The notes below the pieces were generated by a model. The model saw nothing but the letters and a program-made list of their open reading frames with translations. It was not told the origin of the DNA and searched no databases. This document shows positions 1-6,840 of a stretch of 6,840 nt of DNA, one piece after another. The stretch is from IMG/VR virus record IMGVR_UViG_2606217104_000017; one strand, 5' to 3'. Origin of the DNA: a virus (Duplodnaviria; Heunggongvirae; Uroviricota; Caudoviricetes). Numbering within the stretch: position 1 is the stretch's first letter; every line of letters starts with the position of its first letter. The translations under genes were made by a program, and so were the position numbers.

Positions 1-594
1 CTCCGGGGTAAAAAGGTCCGTACGACCATCAGCCGGAAAGCCGTTGCCGCAGGCGACCGCGTAAACCGTCAGTTCGTGGCAGAACGACCTGACCAGCTGT
101 GGGTGGCTGATTTTACTTACGTCAGCACATGGCAGGGCTTCGTCTATGTGGCGTTCATCATTGATGTGTTTGCCGGATACATTGTGGGGTGGCGGGTCTC
201 ATCGTCCATGGAGACGACATTCGTGCTGGATGCACTGGAGCAGGCGTTATGGGCCCGTCGACCGTCCGGCACGGTCCATCACAGTGATAAAGGTTCTCAG
301 TATGTATCGCTGGCCTACACACAGCGGCTTAAGGAAGCCGGATTACTGGCATCAACAGGAAGTACAGGCGACTCGTATGACAACGCGATGGCGGAGAGCA
401 TCAATGGTCTTTACAAAGCGGAGGTAATACACCGTAAGAGCTGGAAAAACCGTGCAGAAGTGGAACTGGCCACACTCACGTGGGTGGACAGGTATAACAA
501 TCGACGATTGCTGGAAAGGCTGGGCCATACTCCTCCGGCAGAAGCAGAAAAAGCTTATTATGCTTCCATCGGAAACGATGATCTGGCAGCCTGA
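1..594 (+). CDS. IS3-family transposase OrfB (DDE integrase-core domain), IS629/IS1203-like; 5' end cut by the window edge
   Basis: Frame +1 is open from nt 1 with no stop until TGA at 592-594, so the ORF-track start at 76 (GTG) is internal and the gene is truncated by the window. The translation LRGKKVRTTISRKAVAAGDRVNRQFVAERPDQLWVADFTYV...HHSDKGSQY...DNAMAESINGLYKAE carries the D, D, E catalytic residues with IS3-family spacing. Assignment to IS629/IS1203 is from memory, not a search. Confidence 0.9.
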   Translation, partial: LRGKKVRTTISRKAVAAGDRVNRQFVAERPDQLWVADFTYVSTWQGFVYVAFIIDVFAGYIVGWRVSSSMETTFVLDALEQALWARRPSGTVHHSDKGSQYVSLAYTQRLKEAGLLASTGSTGDSYDNAMAESINGLYKAEVIHRKSWKNRAEVELATLTWVDRYNNRRLLERLGHTPPAEAEKAYYASIGNDDLAA

Positions 595-757: not shown

Positions 758-2032
758 TTATTGTTTCTGAGCAAACTCAAACGGCCTGACCATCCCATCC
801 CGGTTTGCATCAAGATAATCTGCCCACCACTGTAGCATCAACCTTCGCTGCTCAAGATGTTTGGCCTTATGGGTATAGGCAGCACGAACGCTGTTGCTTT
901 CCTTGTGGCTCATTTGAAGTTCTACCGCATCTTCAGACCATAGCCCTGATTCAATCAGAGCACTACATGCCAGCGTGCGGAAACCATGACCGCAGATGTC
1001 CTGCGTGGTGTCATAGCCCATCTTACGTAGCGCTTTATTGATGGTGTTTTCACTCATGGGCTTGAACGAGTCATAACAGCCCGTAAAAATTAACCCCGCC
1101 TCATTACCTTCTTCATAGGTAAGCTGGCGGATCTCTTTCAGTATTTTAAGAGCCTGCCTGCAGAGGGGAACGAAGTGCTGGCGTTTCATTTTTGCGCCAC
1201 GCGTGGAATATTTGACGCGCTCAATCGCTTCACGCTTTTCTGGTATTACCCATAACTTACTGTTGAAGTCGATTTCTGACCATCGTGCATAGCGGAGTTC
1301 ACTGGAACGAATGAAAATCAACAGATTGAGTTTAATCGCCAGTGTAGTTAGTCCACGACCTTTGTAGGCATCAATACGTTCAAGCAGTAGCGGGATCTCT
1401 TCCAGCTCCAGTGCAGGGCGGTGTTCCGTCTCTGGTTTCTGGACAGCGCCTTCCATATCATAGGCCGGATTATGACGCATAAGCTTTTGCTGGACGGCAT
1501 GACGTAGGATCGCGGTGATGTATTGCTTAATCCGCATGGCAATTTCAAGGTAGCCGAGTGTTTCTGCATTTTTAATCGGAACAAGCAGATCACCCGTATC
1601 CAGATCTGAAACGTTGCTGTCGCCAATATCCGGGAATACATAGGTCTCAAGGCGCTTCCATACCGTATCGGCGTAATCTTCTGACCATTTTGTTTTGGTG
1701 GCAAACCAGCTTCTGGCGACGACACGGAACGAACGGGTTTTATCCCGCTTTTCCTGCAGCGCTTTTTCATCAGCCAGTTTTTTAGCGTTAGGATCGACTC
1801 CCTGAGCAAGCAGCTTTTTTGCTTCATCACGTCGTTGTCTGGCATCAGCAAGAGAAACCGCAGGGTAAACACCAATGGAAAACACTTTCTGTTTACCATC
1901 GAAGCGATAGCCTAACTGCCAGTATTTTGAACCATTGGGATGCACAAGAAGGTAGAGACCAAATCCATCAGTGAGCTTGACGGCTTTTTCCGCTGGTCTG
2001 GCATTTTTTACTTTAGTATCAGTAAGTGACAT
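758..2032 (-). CDS. int: P4-family tyrosine integrase (site-specific recombinase), 424 aa
   Basis: Translation begins MSLTDTKVKNARPAEKAVKLTDGFGLYLLVHPNGSKYWQLGYRF, the characteristic P4-type integrase N-terminus. Catalytic motifs are present: R in IRSSELRYARWSEID, HGFR (box II His/Arg), Tyr nucleophile in RAAYTHK, and the C-terminal EQRRLMLQWWADYL signature. The true start is the ATG at 2032-2030, preceded by GGAGGG with 7-nt spacing; the ORF-track start at 2098 is an upstream TTG and adds 22 residues encoded by the repeat region. Stop TAA at 760-758. Confidence 0.9.
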   Translation of the reverse strand: MSLTDTKVKNARPAEKAVKLTDGFGLYLLVHPNGSKYWQLGYRFDGKQKVFSIGVYPAVSLADARQRRDEAKKLLAQGVDPNAKKLADEKALQEKRDKTRSFRVVARSWFATKTKWSEDYADTVWKRLETYVFPDIGDSNVSDLDTGDLLVPIKNAETLGYLEIAMRIKQYITAILRHAVQQKLMRHNPAYDMEGAVQKPETEHRPALELEEIPLLLERIDAYKGRGLTTLAIKLNLLIFIRSSELRYARWSEIDFNSKLWVIPEKREAIERVKYSTRGAKMKRQHFVPLCRQALKILKEIRQLTYEEGNEAGLIFTGCYDSFKPMSENTINKALRKMGYDTTQDICGHGFRTLACSALIESGLWSEDAVELQMSHKESNSVRAAYTHKAKHLEQRRLMLQWWADYLDANRDGMVRPFEFAQKQ

Positions 2033-2049
2033 GACGGTTCCCTCCGCGT

Positions 2050-2096
2050 GCTGGTAAAACGCAAATCGAACCAGCTTTACCAGCATTTTTACCAGC
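2050..2096 (-). promoter_or_regulatory. Three copies of a 9-bp motif (TTTACCAGC direct at 2076-2084 and 2088-2096; inverted copy GCTGGTAAA at 2050-2058) just upstream of the P4-type integrase start
   Basis: Exact repeats seen directly in the sequence, 18-64 nt upstream of the integrase ATG on the minus strand. Function (operator, integrase arm-type sites or promoter element) is inferred. Confidence 0.3.
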
Positions 2097-2176
2097 AAAG
2101 TAGTGTGGGTTCGAGCGATTTTTAACGAACGAGGGTGAACCTGAAGAAGGGAGTAACCAGTTGATATAAATGCAGA

Positions 2177-2211: not shown

Positions 2212-2287
2212 TGGCTCCTCTGACTGGACTCGAACCAGTGACATACGGATTAACAGTCCGCCGTTCTACCGACTGAACTACAGAGGA
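2212..2287 (-). tRNA. asnT: tRNA-Asn (anticodon GUU), 76 nt with encoded CCA
   Basis: Reverse complement of 2212-2287 is TCCTCTGTAGTTCAGTCGGTAGAACGGCGGACTGTTAATCCGTATGTCACTGGTTCGAGTCCAGTCAGAGGAGCCA, matching E. coli tRNA-Asn as recalled, with anticodon loop CU-GUU-AA. The locus name asnT is by synteny with adjacent mtfA; E. coli has several identical asn tRNA genes, so the symbol is tentative. Confidence 0.97.
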
Positions 2288-3278: not shown

Positions 3279-3368
3279 GGAGAGATGCCGGAGCGGCTGA
3301 ACGGACCGGTCTCGAAAACCGGAGTGGGGGCAACTCCACCGGGGGTTCAAATCCCCCTCTCTCCGCCA
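3279..3368 (+). tRNA. serU: tRNA-Ser (anticodon CGA), 90 nt with long variable arm and encoded CCA
   Basis: GGAGAGATGCCGGAGCGGCTGAACGGACCGGTCTCGAAAACCGGAGTGGGGGCAACTCCACCGGGGGTTCAAATCCCCCTCTCTCCGCCA: class II tRNA with anticodon loop CU-CGA-AA (3312-3314), T-stem GGGGG/CCCCC and 3' CCA. It is divergent from mtfA, as serU is in E. coli K-12 (recalled synteny). Confidence 0.97.
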
Positions 3369-3413: not shown

Positions 3414-3460
3414 CTTGGAATTACTTGGAATTACTTGGAATATTTTCTTGGAATATTTTC
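3414..3460. repeat. Tandem direct repeats: 2 x CTTGGAATTA (3414-3423, 3424-3433) then 2 x CTTGGAATATTTT (3434-3446, 3447-3459); candidate integrase arm-type binding sites at attL
   Basis: Exact tandem copies seen in the sequence. They straddle the integrase stop codon (3433-3431), and the last nine integrase codons (ENIPRKYSK) are encoded by the 13-bp repeat pair. A nearby palindrome GTCAGTGAC sits at 3395-3403. Confidence 0.8.
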
Positions 3461-4456
3461 AGGTAACGGGACATCAAGTGTCGGTGAAACTTTAACCTTC
3501 CTGTCATAGATTAGCACTTGCCCCTCGGTTTTGTGACCAGAGAAAAGTTGCTTATCCCGACTGCTTCCTTCATAGTCTGAAATTCCTTTCGCCTTCAGAT
3601 CATGAAAGGTGAAGTCGGTTAAAATACCTGAAATTTTGCCTGCGCGATTTCTTGCTTCTACCCACATTTCGTTAAAGCCTTTGTACATATATCGGTTGCC
3701 GTATTGATTACTGATTACATAGGCGGATGTTGGTAACTGTTTTGCTTTTTCGATCGCCGCCTGTAATCGTGGACTCCATGCTTTTATCTGTTTTTTTCCT
3801 GTTTTCCCTTGCTGGATAAAGATTCCGTCGTTTCCAATCTGCTCCCATTTCAGCGATAACACATCGGAAACCCTCGCTGCACACAGATAGGCAATTTCCA
3901 TTGCGATAAAAACAGGAAGAGGTGCAACGCTTAATACTGCCTGGTATTCTTTGTCGGTTACATATCGTTCGCGGTTTTTGGCCTTGAATTTACTTACACC
4001 TGCACATGGGTTAGCCTTCACGTACCCTCGCTCATACCCCCAACTGTAAACGCGGGACATACTGCTTTTTTCATGGTTGGCTTGCGTTTTACTCTGTTCC
4101 CCTCTCTTGTCCATGTATCGACGGATGTGTTCTGGTTTTATGGAATCTGCCGGCACCTTACCGAATACGGCAAGCAACTTTTTTTGATGTTGCAGATAAT
4201 CTTTTTGTGTTCTTGGACTGAGGTCACTGTAATAGGCGCTGGCGAGGAATTTTTCCCACAAGCGACCGAATGTCATTGCACGATCGCGATTATTTACAGT
4301 TTCCTCATACTTTTTCCATAAAGCAGCTAAACCATCCTTGATGGCGGTTAGTGTGACAGATTCTCTGGATGTTGGTTTCCATACATAACTATATTTATTT
4401 GGGTATACATTTGGAGGTAGTTTTTCGTGTTCAGGATTTTTCCTTCGTCTTCCCAT
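3431..4456 (-). CDS. int: Lambda-family tyrosine integrase, 341 aa
   Basis: N-terminus MGRRRKNPEHEKLPPNVYPNKYSY resembles the lambda Int arm-binding domain (lambda begins MGRRRSHERRDLPPNLY, recalled). The catalytic region has R195 (CAARVSDVL), box II TFHDLK (H285, with K288 where Arg is expected), H308 (SGHKT) and the Tyr nucleophile Y317 (LIYDRK), with the 9-residue H-to-Y spacing of lambda Int. Start ATG at 4456-4454, stop TAA at 3433-3431. Confidence 0.9.
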   Translation of the reverse strand: MGRRRKNPEHEKLPPNVYPNKYSYVWKPTSRESVTLTAIKDGLAALWKKYEETVNNRDRAMTFGRLWEKFLASAYYSDLSPRTQKDYLQHQKKLLAVFGKVPADSIKPEHIRRYMDKRGEQSKTQANHEKSSMSRVYSWGYERGYVKANPCAGVSKFKAKNRERYVTDKEYQAVLSVAPLPVFIAMEIAYLCAARVSDVLSLKWEQIGNDGIFIQQGKTGKKQIKAWSPRLQAAIEKAKQLPTSAYVISNQYGNRYMYKGFNEMWVEARNRAGKISGILTDFTFHDLKAKGISDYEGSSRDKQLFSGHKTEGQVLIYDRKVKVSPTLDVPLPENIPRKYSK

Positions 4457-4659
4457 TAGATTGCACCAAAATTCGGCTCTACCTCGCGTGGTGGTAAAGT
4501 TTTATTGCAGGTAAATAGATCCCGGCTGACAATCGGTTTGCCACTACGATTGGTATAGAACGGAAGCCCGTTTTCCGTTAACCATTTTCGCTGGTGGCTT
4601 GCATATTTGCAGCCCGTTAATATTAGCAATTCATCTTCGGTTAAAAATAAGTTGCTCAT
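4456..4659 (-). CDS. xis: Small excisionase-like protein (recalled as DUF4224-type, often found upstream of phage integrases), 67 aa
   Basis: MSNLFLTEDELLILTGCKYASHQRKWLTENGLPFYTNRSGKPIVSRDLF has the size, position and motif pattern of the small integrase-coupled excisionase-like proteins, as recalled. Its TAA stop (4458-4456) overlaps the integrase ATG by one nucleotide (TAATG), implying translational coupling. Excisionase function is inferred from context. Confidence 0.6.
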   Translation of the reverse strand: MSNLFLTEDELLILTGCKYASHQRKWLTENGLPFYTNRSGKPIVSRDLFTCNKTLPPREVEPNFGAI

Positions 4660-4717: not shown

Positions 4718-6838
4718 TTAAAAATCAGCCTGACTCGGGATCAGTTTTTGCCAGATAACTGAAACGTATTTTGCCTGGTAACGGGCGTCATCAAGTGCAT
4801 TATGGCGCTCACCTTCGAATGGAATAGCCGTTCTGGCATCGAAGTCTATGGCTTTCCCCAGCTCAACGATTGTGCGTACATCGCGATCGTTGTAGTAACG
4901 CCACGGGCAGGGGATCCCCTGCCGTTCGTATGAACGGCGCAAAATCGTGTTGTCGAAGTTGGCTCCATTTCCCCAGACCTGAACAAAAAATTCACCGGAG
5001 TTTTCGTCGATAAATTCCCGCAATTGTAACAGTGCATCATCTAACTGGATTTCATCGGTCATAATGGCAGATTGCGCTTCGCGTGATTGCTTAAGCCACC
5101 ATTTAATGGTGTCCCGATCAATGACTCCGCCAGCAGTTTCCAGATCGATAGTCTTACTAAATTCCGGTCCCATATCTCCGGTTTGCGGATCGAAAAATAT
5201 TGCACCTATTGAGATGATCGGGGCATCAGGATTTTTTCCCATGGTTTCAAGGTCGATCATTAGATGGTCACACGTCCTGCTGGTGGATGTGATTTCTTGA
5301 TGACCGTTCACCTTAATTGAGTGATCTGCCGTCTCGCCAGTTTCATTATCGCTGGCATGATGCTGATTGCCGCCAGTGTTCTCCTTGTGTGGATGTTCAG
5401 CGCCTTCCATTTTCTCCGGATCATCTTCCTGAACTTCAACCTGATACTCTTCATCGAATGTTTCCTGGTATGTTGCGTCGCCCATCACCGCGCCACAATC
5501 AGGGCAGTTGCCGCCGCCGGTCTGACCGCAGGCGGTGCAGACTTTTTCCACTTCCTGTTGCGCCACTGGTTCAGGCTGTTTCGTTTCTGGCTCGTTTTGT
5601 AACGCATTTGGGCTGTTTTGTTCCGCTTTTTGGTAGTTCCGTTCCGATTCATGCTGGTTCTGGTTTACAGAATCGCGGGTCTGGATCCCCTTAACCCATT
5701 TCGGATCATTCGGGTCGCTAATCCCTGCAACAAATTCTCCGCGAGAGGCAGCAAGCAACTTATCGGCGTCAGGCTGGCTGATATTGGCTGCCTGCATAAT
5801 TTTGTTTACTTCGTCAGCGGTAACTTTTACCGGCTCTGGTTGTGCGGTCGTGTCAGATGCACCAGTATTTTGTTGTGAACCTGAGTATGTACTGTTTTTG
5901 CGGGCGAAATATTCTTCTTTCGTGATTTCAGTAGCCCCGGCAGCCAGTGCCTTATCCAGACCAGAAAGTTTGTTTGCGCGACCGTATTTTTCGCCATCCT
6001 TGTCGGTGAAGAGGAAGTAGAACGGCCCCTCACGCTCTACAGATGGTTCGACTTCCACTTTGCATTCGGTTTTTTCGTTGTCCGGAATTGCCGTTTCCAC
6101 TGCATCAGTTTCTGGTACTGACGACGAGAGAGTATCAGTTGCGCTCTGATTTGTTCCTTCATCTTCAAACACGCCCTTTGTAGTCAGGTATTCAGTAATG
6201 TATTTGTTCAGTGCCACAGGGTCTTTGTGAATGTCGATCGGACGTTCACGGACAAGGCCAAAAATAGTCTGGCGGTCGTAGCGAAGGGCATCAGGCTGTT
6301 TGCGCATTGATGTCGAGATACGCTTCCAGTCTTCGCGGTCGTTGTCGATAACTTCATTTTTTGCCCAGCGATGGATGCTGCCGTCAATGTTTCCGGCATC
6401 CACATCACCAGGCCAGAGAGCGTAGGCCAGTTCGTCATCCAGTGTTTTCCATGTCTGCTTGTATTCGCGATGAATGGCAGCAATGACCGGGCTGATTTTT
6501 CCTGTTGAATTTTCAGTGTGCTGTTGATTGACTCTGGCGCGGGCGAGATCAACAACAGACGTGTATTTTCCGGTTTCCTTGCGTTCACCTTCGCGACGTT
6601 TTTTCCAGATGCGCATCTCTGCCTGAATTTCGGGCCATTTGGCACCAGGCTTACATTTATGCTTAACCCACCCGATGGCATGCAGCTTAAGCTCCGGATA
6701 CATGGCGTTAACTTCTGGCATTTTCATCAACGCTTCAACGATATGTCCGTTGAATGTTGCCATGTCTTCCTGCAACAATTCCTGTGCGCTAATAACCATA
6801 TCAACGGTGATGTTTTCACATGTGTCGAACTTAACCAT
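4718..6838 (-). CDS. Large prophage protein (706 aa) with C-terminal DnaQ-like DEDDh 3'-5' exonuclease domain, central acidic low-complexity linker with a C4 zinc ribbon, and an N-terminal region of uncertain homology; possibly 5'-partial
   Basis: The C-terminal roughly 185 residues (about 4718-5280) carry Exo I MIDLETMG (D528, E530), Exo [10 protein letters not shown] (D628) and Exo [12 protein letters not shown] (H679-x4-D684) in canonical DEDDh order. The zinc ribbon [16 protein letters not shown] (C-x2-C-x8-C-x2-C) is encoded at 5495-5539. Residues about 400-520 are strongly acidic and Q/N/E/H-rich. The ATG at 6838-6836 is only 2 nt from the window end, so the real start may lie upstream. 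Stop TAA at 4720-4718. Confidence 0.8.
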
Positions 6839-6840
6839 GA

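Follow-up and report, generated by a model that had tools for sequence, protein, structure and literature searches.

Among the closest described relatives of the gene considered here is recE, which encodes exonuclease VIII of the Rac prophage. RecE is an 866-amino-acid (aa) protein in which Pfam recognises an N-terminal PF06630 (Exonuc_VIII) region and, at the C terminus, a nuclease domain of the PD-(D/E)xK type (PF12684, also DUF3799; residues 606-866); in Rac its gene is followed by recT. The N-terminal domain of RecE is of unknown function, according to a review from a group working on RecE enzymes. A second point of reference is exonuclease A (DexA) of phage T4, a stand-alone protein of 227 aa from a virulent phage, whose structure has been solved (PDB 8KEL and 8KEN) and in which W152 and D169 have been linked to recognition of 5-hydroxymethylcytosine (5hmC; Kang et al., Nucleic Acids Research 2025, PMC12153337). 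A third is ydfE, a pseudogene of the Qin prophage of Escherichia coli K-12. Here, we describe a gene that joins elements of all three. It lies on the minus strand of a 6,840-nucleotide (nt) stretch of DNA, called the window below, from a virus of the Caudoviricetes (IMG/VR record IMGVR_UViG_2606217104_000017), in which it forms an open reading frame (ORF) of 706 stop-free residues.

The encoded protein is built like beads on a string: a YdfE-type scaffold at the N terminus, a middle part shared with RecE and, in the place where RecE carries its own nuclease, a DEDDh exonuclease domain of the DexA/Rv2179c family. A RecE-like scaffold with a swapped 3'-5'-type nuclease was also the central proposal of a first-pass annotation made from the DNA letters, and every computational test that we ran supports it. 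The nuclease family itself, its correct naming in current domain databases and the existence of DnaQ-like nucleases in lambdoid phages (2025) are already known. What appears to be undescribed so far is a precise exchange, on scaffolds common to both, of the cassette of RecE nuclease and recT for a DexA-like domain, together with the reciprocal combinations of these modules and the outnumbering of canonical RecE by this form in E. coli.

By both sequence and fold, the C-terminal domain is a DEDDh exonuclease of the DexA subfamily. PF16473, the Rv2179c-like 3'-5' exoribonuclease domain, matches residues 525-696 with an E-value (E) of 2.4e-67 and 226.5 bits against a cut-off of 27. The match covers the profile from position 2 to its end at 177; PF00929, the generic RNase_T model, scores just E 1.5e-4 on the same domain. 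(Fragment numbering follows the ORF in the window; adding 117 gives the numbering of the full protein.) The RecE nuclease domain PF12684, which Pfam detects in K-12 RecE at E 4e-28, is absent here. All five catalytic residues are present, namely D529, E531, D629, H679 and D684 of the fragment, or D646, E648, D746, H796 and D801 of the full protein, and the Exo I, Exo II and Exo III motifs are intact and lie where the first-pass annotation had placed them, although its numbers for the first two residues (D528 and E530) were off by one. The first four of them (D, E, D and H) do not vary in an alignment of 40 homologues at 39-60% identity, in which conservation of the final D is 90% or higher. 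An AlphaFold2 (AF2) model of the domain has a mean predicted local distance difference test score (pLDDT) of 93.3 and a predicted template-modelling score (pTM) of 0.89. When this model is compared with the PDB by Foldseek, T4 DexA comes out on top (8KEN and 8KEL, E 2e-11, TM-score 0.76), followed by RNase T, a DnaQ domain, REXO2 and oligoribonucleases (Orn), all with a probability of 1.00. A homologue-built profile run against the PDB finds DexA at E 3e-22 over its whole length, with the next sequence at 1e-5. Profile search and structure comparison, by which the first-pass annotation had proposed to probe its assignment, therefore agree on a DEDDh domain of DnaQ-type fold.

From its family membership, the domain is likely to be a Mg2+-dependent 3'-5' exonuclease, and it would remove nucleotides from free 3'-OH ends by two-metal-ion hydrolysis through the five residues named above. 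The substrate is most probably DNA, since DexA, a DNA exonuclease, is by far the closest solved relative. An enzyme directed at RNA or at signals is an alternative, raised in its anti-defence form by the first-pass annotation: it might act in anti-defence, by degrading immune oligonucleotides, retron products or other nucleic-acid signals, or in the turnover of host or phage RNA during lytic growth. Such a role would fit the structural neighbours RNase T, oligoribonuclease and REXO2, whose substrates are RNA or dinucleotides, as well as the naming of the Pfam family after the exoribonuclease Rv2179c and the existence of ISG20-like DEDDh enzymes that bear auxiliary domains and act at the 3' ends of phage RNA (PMC13344964). 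We consider it improbable, given that all PDB sequences other than DexA score 1e-5 or weaker in the profile search, that TONDO and ISG20-like enzymes belong to a different DEDDh subfamily, and that scaffolds of the same kind carry the RecE double-stranded DNA (dsDNA) exonuclease beside recT, which points to DNA ends. Nor did we find a link between the family seen in the window and signalling nucleotides.

The part of the protein that precedes this domain, some 630 aa long in the full-length form, is where the kinship with RecE resides. The first-pass annotation had noted a likeness to the noncatalytic part of RecE, and BLASTP verifies it, aligning the middle of the protein with RecE residues 278-591 at E 2e-61. 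Over the last 140 residues of the alignment identity reaches about 80%, running from a conserved short motif through a zinc ribbon and an acidic linker to ETGE(T/V)AD, and after RecE residue 591 the two proteins diverge. Outside this middle the resemblance ends: the NCBIfam RecE equivalog model NF007259 is matched only over profile positions 271-602 of 877, with 280.8 bits against a cut-off of 1269, and Pfam finds no PF06630 in the full-length protein. In sum, the protein differs from RecE in lacking PF12684, PF06630 and an adjacent recT, and in a predicted polarity of 3'-5' as opposed to 5'-3'; in total length the two are alike (823 and 866 aa). The first-pass annotation was right that the nuclease hangs on an acidic linker with a zinc ribbon, the linker measuring 111 aa; the central spacing of the ribbon is x7, and not x8 as it had given. 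Both features are shared with RecE, whose ribbon reads CNACGQTGGDNCPDC, and are therefore inherited from it rather than a novel tether.

A second protein sharpens the position of the junction. From RecE residue 1 to 591, P0124 (805 aa) follows RecE at 88% identity, and it switches to the DEDDh domain after ...ETGETADPLI. The DEDDh domain therefore takes the place of the PD-(D/E)xK domain exactly where the acidic linker ends. The genomic setting of P0124 (L014 5001-8705, E. coli GCA_039763085.1) provides a natural example of cassette exchange within one integration module: a Rac-like prophage with KilR, YdaE, SieB and YdaT carries RecE(1-591) fused to DEDDh in place of recE-recT, and is integrated beside mtfA with a DUF4224 excisionase and a 341-aa integrase of the same type as in the window.

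When 1.84 billion cluster representatives were searched exhaustively and the matches scanned with Pfam, these two proteins fell within a wider set of combinations. Ten divergent representatives (50% clustering) join a RecE-type N terminus (PF06630) to a DEDDh domain, whereas the window protein joins a YdfE-type N terminus to it; conversely, PD-(D/E)xK follows a PF06630 N terminus in RecE and P0155 and a YdfE-type N terminus in P0154, and in P0130, P0147 and P0150 the YdfE-type N terminus is followed by no recognised domain. The modules thus shuffle, either type of N terminus occurring with either nuclease. Such reciprocal exchange offers an experimental handle on the unexplained N-terminal 590 or so residues of RecE.

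Early-left regions of prophages are highly mosaic, and one could ask whether the fusion is a neutral product of illegitimate or homologous recombination between prophages, with no selected function. That K-12 carries just an IS2-truncated pseudogene, and that variants with internal deletions such as P0122 exist, would sit well with such an origin. Nonetheless, we regard it as very improbable. Thousands of genomes have the ORF intact, as do the viable phages mEp460, Tritos, HannyBb and PhiR42_1; the catalytic residues hold in homologues down to 39% identity; and Klebsiella, Kluyvera, Enterobacter and Phytobacter have divergent sequences of the same scaffold-plus-DEDDh architecture.

The window gene is the intact form of the K-12 pseudogene ydfE, and in lambdoid prophages of the Qin, mEp460 and Tritos type it closes the early-left (dicF-dicB-ydfD) operon. 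Over its first 256 aa the full protein shares 97% identity with K-12 ydfE, which has the same neighbors, dicF-dicB-ydfD upstream and int downstream, and is cut by IS2E after codon 256, so that it lacks the RecE-like middle and the exonuclease domain. Likewise, the Tritos copy, 94.8% identical to that of the window, sits after dicF-dicB-ydfD and before xis-int. A functional study of ydfE or of the fusion was not found in literature searches on ydfE, Rv2179c and RecE with DEDDh. The first-pass annotation had seen a real ORF, but its figure of 706 aa describes the window rather than the protein, which the window cuts. Aligned to phrog_2082 (PHROG 2082), the ORF begins at position 118 of the 823-position profile and runs to its end. 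Copies of full length, 823 aa (2472 nt), occur in E. coli 2013C-4991 (99.7% DNA identity to the window gene), mEp460 (mEp460_ev081) and Tritos. The first 117 codons are missing, the Met at 6838 is internal, being residue 118 of the full protein, and the true start, which the first-pass annotation had proposed to look for beyond position 6840, lies 351 nt past the window end. An internal translation start at M527 was also considered and set aside; the nearest AGGA lies 14 nt upstream and is not convincing.

This form of the gene is also the commoner one in E. coli. DNA of the DEDDh domain occurs in 4069 of 5426 complete E. coli genomes (75%), at 8111 places, with up to 7 per genome and mostly at 95% identity or more; DNA of the RecE nuclease domain occurs in 1736 of the same genomes (32%), at 1827 places. 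Names matter here. The first-pass annotation had warned that such proteins are labelled exodeoxyribonuclease VIII automatically, which is still true of several phage records, while RefSeq now uses 'exonuclease', '3'-5' exonuclease' and '3'-5' exoribonuclease domain-containing protein'. A function carried over from RecE, such as 5'-3' resection or partnership with RecT in recombineering, would be wrong for the commoner E. coli form, whose nuclease belongs to another superfamily with the opposite predicted polarity.

Its prevalence and multiple copies per genome invite the idea of a superinfection-exclusion or defence nuclease, one that would degrade the modified (for example, 5hmC-containing) DNA of incoming T-even phages and so shield the lysogen or the induced cell. 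The neighbors in the dicB operon are accessory genes, DicB reportedly confers resistance to phages, and a slot next to int is typical of accessory genes. DexA is the closest solved relative of the domain, and EcD, an E. coli homologue of DexA, breaks down T4 DNA in vitro and, if supplied on a plasmid, protects cells against T4, an activity named 'HREX' (PMC12153337). EcD is the only E. coli member of the DexA family with published biochemistry. It is, however, a stand-alone protein of different sequence (it starts MIDTET and ends TIPETYD) and a more distant homologue, absent from the 384 homologues that we collected, none of which starts with MIDTET or ends with ETYD. A 23-mer derived from an EcD primer had no match in viral or metagenome contigs. 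The cloned EcD gene is probably synthetic.

DexA and the window protein are both phage-encoded members of one DEDDh subfamily, and DexA residues D7, E9, D119, H186 and D191 align with the catalytic residues here; yet identity is only about 22-27%, DexA has extra loops, and its tetramer contacts are not conserved in the window domain. As for the residues reported to read 5hmC, W152 aligns with a Tyr and D169 falls in a DexA-specific insertion absent here, so that neither equivalent is kept, a moderately secure result given alignment at 27% identity. PADLOC models of defence systems give no match to the protein, and a gene in a repressor-controlled early-left operon should be silent in a stable lysogen. 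A defence role would, moreover, leave the exchange with the RecE nuclease and recT cassette at a precise junction unexplained, and on balance we judge it unlikely.

That cassette extends beyond the nuclease. In Rac-like viral loci, recT follows RecE in 75 of 80, and the stop codon of P0154, the YdfE-type protein with a PD-(D/E)xK domain, is overlapped by a RecT-family gene (PF03837, E 2e-36). Around the long DEDDh form, by comparison, tblastn searches within 7-8 kb with RecT, Bet and Erf as probes found no annealase in any of 80 close viral loci, in any of 11 diverse genome loci from different Enterobacteriaceae species, or in the mEp460 region examined. The complete Tritos genome likewise yielded no RecT, Bet or Erf, and its annotation lists no annealase or Gam; in all of the annealase-less loci examined, xis-int directly follows the long DEDDh gene. 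The viral sets are the best 80 matches and nearly clonal, and hence the association between recT and nuclease type rests on few independent lineages together with the species-level genome scan. Since recT stands beside PD-(D/E)xK forms and beside none of the long DEDDh forms, the swap includes it: the unit exchanged is 'PD-(D/E)xK domain plus recT' against 'DEDDh domain alone'. The first-pass annotation's suspicion that this is not the usual recombination exonuclease held up, and the annealing partner that it proposed to look for upstream was not found with these three probes.

Zheng et al. (Genome Research 2025, PMC12315714) report that the early-left operons of lambdoid phages can encode DnaQ-like 3'-5' nucleases, in many cases beside int, and present Tritos as the prototype of a rare nuclease-only type, Chi-rich and devoid of an annealase (single-strand annealing protein, SAP), a single-strand-binding protein (SSB) or an anti-RecBCD function. 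They also show that LLS, a related phage that is Chi-rich and has no recombination module, is aided in its growth by RecBCD. In the sense given there, the present locus falls outside a lambdoid 'Rec' module, having a nuclease alone at the int end of the operon, and the main text does not describe the RecE/YdfE-scaffold fusion, its junction or the reciprocal combinations. Chi sites (GCTGGTGG) are indeed abundant in carriers of the gene. In the prophage part of the window, 2 are observed against 0.21 expected, and the one inside the exonuclease gene is also present in Tritos, which has 9 on the top strand and 2 on the bottom strand (L257; about 0.9 expected per strand). A 20-kb stretch of E. coli 2013C-4991 (L001) has 5 on top and 0 on the bottom.

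These observations also bear on whether the protein is a true replacement of RecE, that is, whether it supports RecBCD-independent recombination alone or with an unrecognised annealase or RecA, for example by creating 5' overhangs or removing 3' flaps. The same position and the scaffold shared with RecE speak for such a role. So do short homologues 1.2-1.6 kb downstream of erf in 6 of 80 diverse loci, P0150 and P0147, which end in a domain with a weak Rad52-like signature, and precedent: DexA is mentioned as taking part in T4 intron homing, a form of double-strand-break repair (PMC12153337), and Zheng et al. count certain DnaQ-type genes, that of phage epsilon34 among them, as part of a recombination module (PMC12315714). 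We nevertheless find it rather unlikely. No annealase was seen with the RecT, Bet and Erf probes near any long-form copy examined, the Chi-rich carriers argue for reliance on RecBCD, and degradation in the 3'-5' direction would destroy the very 3' tail used by annealases and RecA, usually inhibiting recombination (Lovett 2011, as cited in PMC12315714).

What the protein does for the phage is thus a matter of hypothesis. The reading that we favor, with high confidence in the class of enzyme but low to moderate confidence in its biological role, is that of a scaffold-tethered 3'-5' DNA exonuclease that acts at DNA ends and trims 3' tails during RecBCD/RecA-dependent lytic growth. The protein would appear when a prophage is induced or a cell infected, along with the products of dicB and ydfD, and not in the repressed lysogen. 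Its scaffold would bring the nuclease to DNA ends, as suggested by the fact that the same scaffolds also carry RecE's nuclease for dsDNA ends. There, it might trim 3' tails of phage or host DNA, the phage depending on RecBCD and RecA of the host. It is established that RecBCD requires nearly blunt ends, and trimming could, for example, make ends blunt enough for RecBCD loading; the protein would not, on this account, be a strand-resection enzyme of the SynExo type. Trimming is favored because the carrier phages are without an annealase and an anti-RecBCD protein and are Chi-rich. The host offers a parallel in ExoX and ExoI, DnaQ-superfamily 3'-5' DNases of E. coli that may trim 3' single-stranded DNA tails; these share the predicted chemistry but belong to a different DEDDh subfamily (PF00929), are chromosomal housekeeping enzymes and have no scaffold. 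At stake is the way in which annealase-less, Chi-rich lambdoid phages handle DNA ends, and the viable carriers Tritos and mEp460 make such questions testable.

Several points weigh against this reading. A tblastn search with three probes (RecT, Bet and Erf) could miss a divergent annealase, and no DNA-binding fold was detected in the scaffold. Polarity and the preference for DNA over RNA are predicted from membership of a family, PF16473, that is named after an exoribonuclease, and the blunting of ends for RecBCD is reasoned from that enzyme's need for nearly blunt ends. Stand-alone homologues of the domain occupy the same int-proximal slot; the nuclease can therefore do without the scaffold, and the slot houses it quite generally. 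Of 80 loci in the species-level genome scan, 69 encode a stand-alone DEDDh protein of 182-286 aa, 45-61% identical to the domain, in Enterobacterales, Vibrio, Aeromonas and other genera, and about 30 of these loci have an integrase match within roughly 1.5 kb downstream. Occupation of the int-proximal slot in many unrelated prophages is the typical pattern of accessory or 'moron' genes. Lastly, Zheng et al. state that 3'-5' DnaQ-like nucleases usually inhibit homologous recombination and that DnaQ-type genes beside int may not belong to the recombination module (PMC12315714).

A broader proposal can be built on the interchange of modules, although we think it doubtful as it stands. The N terminus of RecE and YdfE may be an autonomous targeting module whose DNA-end substrate or host partner stays the same while the effectors that it delivers are interchangeable: a 5'-3' PD-(D/E)xK nuclease with recT, a 3'-5' DEDDh nuclease or, possibly, a Rad52-like annealase or nuclease-less domains. 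The DEDDh form would then be a 'pro-RecBCD' device that blunts 3' tails for RecBCD loading and Chi action. If true, this would be the opposite of the strategy of lambda Gam plus Red, and the commoner one among E. coli prophages, judging by the genome counts given above.

The features of the window are collected below. The order of ORF, excisionase and integrase that the first-pass annotation reported is borne out, and no terminator-like site was found between the exonuclease gene and xis. The neighborhood of the integrase also includes mtfA.

Table 1. Features of the exonuclease gene and its surroundings (positions in the window; aa numbers are those of the fragment unless marked as full-length)
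Feature	Position	Strand	Remarks
Partial exonuclease coding sequence	4718..6838	-	residues 118-823 of an 823-aa YdfE-family/RecE-like DEDDh exonuclease
YdfE-type N-terminal scaffold	6161..6838	-	full-length 118-343; helical blocks
Small conserved beta/alpha domain (...EYFARKNG)	5885..6037	-	full-length 385-435; AF2 pLDDT about 85
RecE-homologous noncatalytic middle	5315..6406	-	aa 145-508 (full-length 262-625); RecE 278-591
Conserved short motif, 33 aa	5672..5770	-	aa 357-389; common to RecE (453-485) and other scaffold variants
Acidic low-complexity linker	5270..5602	-	aa 413-523; 24 D+E against 6 K+R; ends at swap junction
Zinc ribbon C-x2-C-x7-C-x2-C	5495..5539	-	aa 434-448; shared with RecE
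DEDDh 3'-5' exonuclease domain (PF16473, DexA/Rv2179c-like)	4751..5266	-	Pfam, conserved residues, AF2 model, Foldseek, PDB profile search
Exo I motif, MIDLETMG	5237-5260	-	aa 527-534
Exo II motif	4952-4975	-	aa 622-629
Exo III motif	4778-4804	-	aa 679-687
Chi site (GCTGGTGG) inside exonuclease gene	5279..5286	+	
Second Chi site (GCTGGTGG), in xis	4590-4597	+	same orientation
Excisionase (DUF4224)	4456..4659	-	58 nt downstream of exonuclease stop
Prophage tyrosine integrase	3431..4456	-	adjoins tRNA-Ser(CGA)
tRNA-Ser(CGA)	3279-3368	+	probable attachment site

For the YdfE-type N-terminal scaffold, no solved structural relative was found; newer Pfam releases divide the family into PF27430 (YdfE_N) and PF27432 (YdfE_C), both precomputed for homologues at 73-99% identity. 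The small beta/alpha domain is conserved in the homologue alignment and falls in a gap of the RecE alignment, being absent from K-12 RecE.

Further variants of the scaffold came to light in the architecture search. P0150 (778 aa) and P0147 (531 aa) carry neither nuclease, and their C-terminal domain contains ...KKSLTDALKKALSLLGFSADVWLGLYD, which resembles a signature of Rad52/Sak-type annealases. For P0150, the Pfam model Rad52_Rad22 reaches just E 0.027, a weak match, a sequence search of the PDB gives none, and PHROGs (7838) says 'exonuclease', probably by name transfer. Were the signature real, the scaffold would also be found fused to an annealase. P0130 (702 aa) couples the YdfE-type scaffold to a C-terminal region of about 260 aa without a Pfam family (phrog_26058), and may correspond to the nuclease-less 'RecE-2' proteins mentioned by Zheng et al. 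2025 (PMC12315714). In P0122 (527 aa), P0270 (532 aa) and P0350 (392 aa), by contrast, internal deletions join the YdfE N terminus to part of the DEDDh domain and skip the RecE-like middle.

Among the stand-alone forms, a conserved string of genes recurs. It is seen in Salmonella prophages (L005-L008 2637-6570) and in about 17-22 of the loci L175-L254, where the exonuclease follows homologues of yfdP and yfdQ (DUF2303) and a gene of 179 aa that weakly matches a YfbR-like HD domain, in some cases with a DndB-like gene, and is followed by xis and int. The trio of yfdP, yfdQ and the 179-aa gene is noted by Zheng et al. in the RecBCD-aided phage LLS and in ST64B (PMC12315714). For five stand-alone copies, erf is found 1.2-1.6 kb upstream, and a 286-aa form has a sixth Erf match at the same distance. 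Not every short form is genuine, however. The 183-aa stand-alone E. coli copies (P0061, 277 members; L009 737-3127 and L010-L012, gene 108-679) were discarded as evidence of a split gene, being artefacts of draft assembly caused by runs of N or contig ends inside the long gene, and many 'partial' database entries of this prophage gene, which occurs in multiple copies, arise likewise.

Beyond mtfA, on its far side, the window holds a second integrated element, at 76-594 (+), 758-2098 (-) and 2212-2287 (-). It consists of a P4-type integrase (Arm-DNA-bind_3, Phage_int_M and Phage_integrase) beside tRNA-Asn and then a fragment of an IS3-family (IS1203-like) transposase, and only 4 complete E. coli genomes, of O111-type strains, have this exact arrangement over at least 80% of positions 1-2400. 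Finally, in E. coli 2013C-4991 the same prophage carries adjacent genes for a SMODS nucleotidyltransferase and a SLATT-domain protein beside its replication genes (L001 17178-18618), a pair that looks like a defence system.

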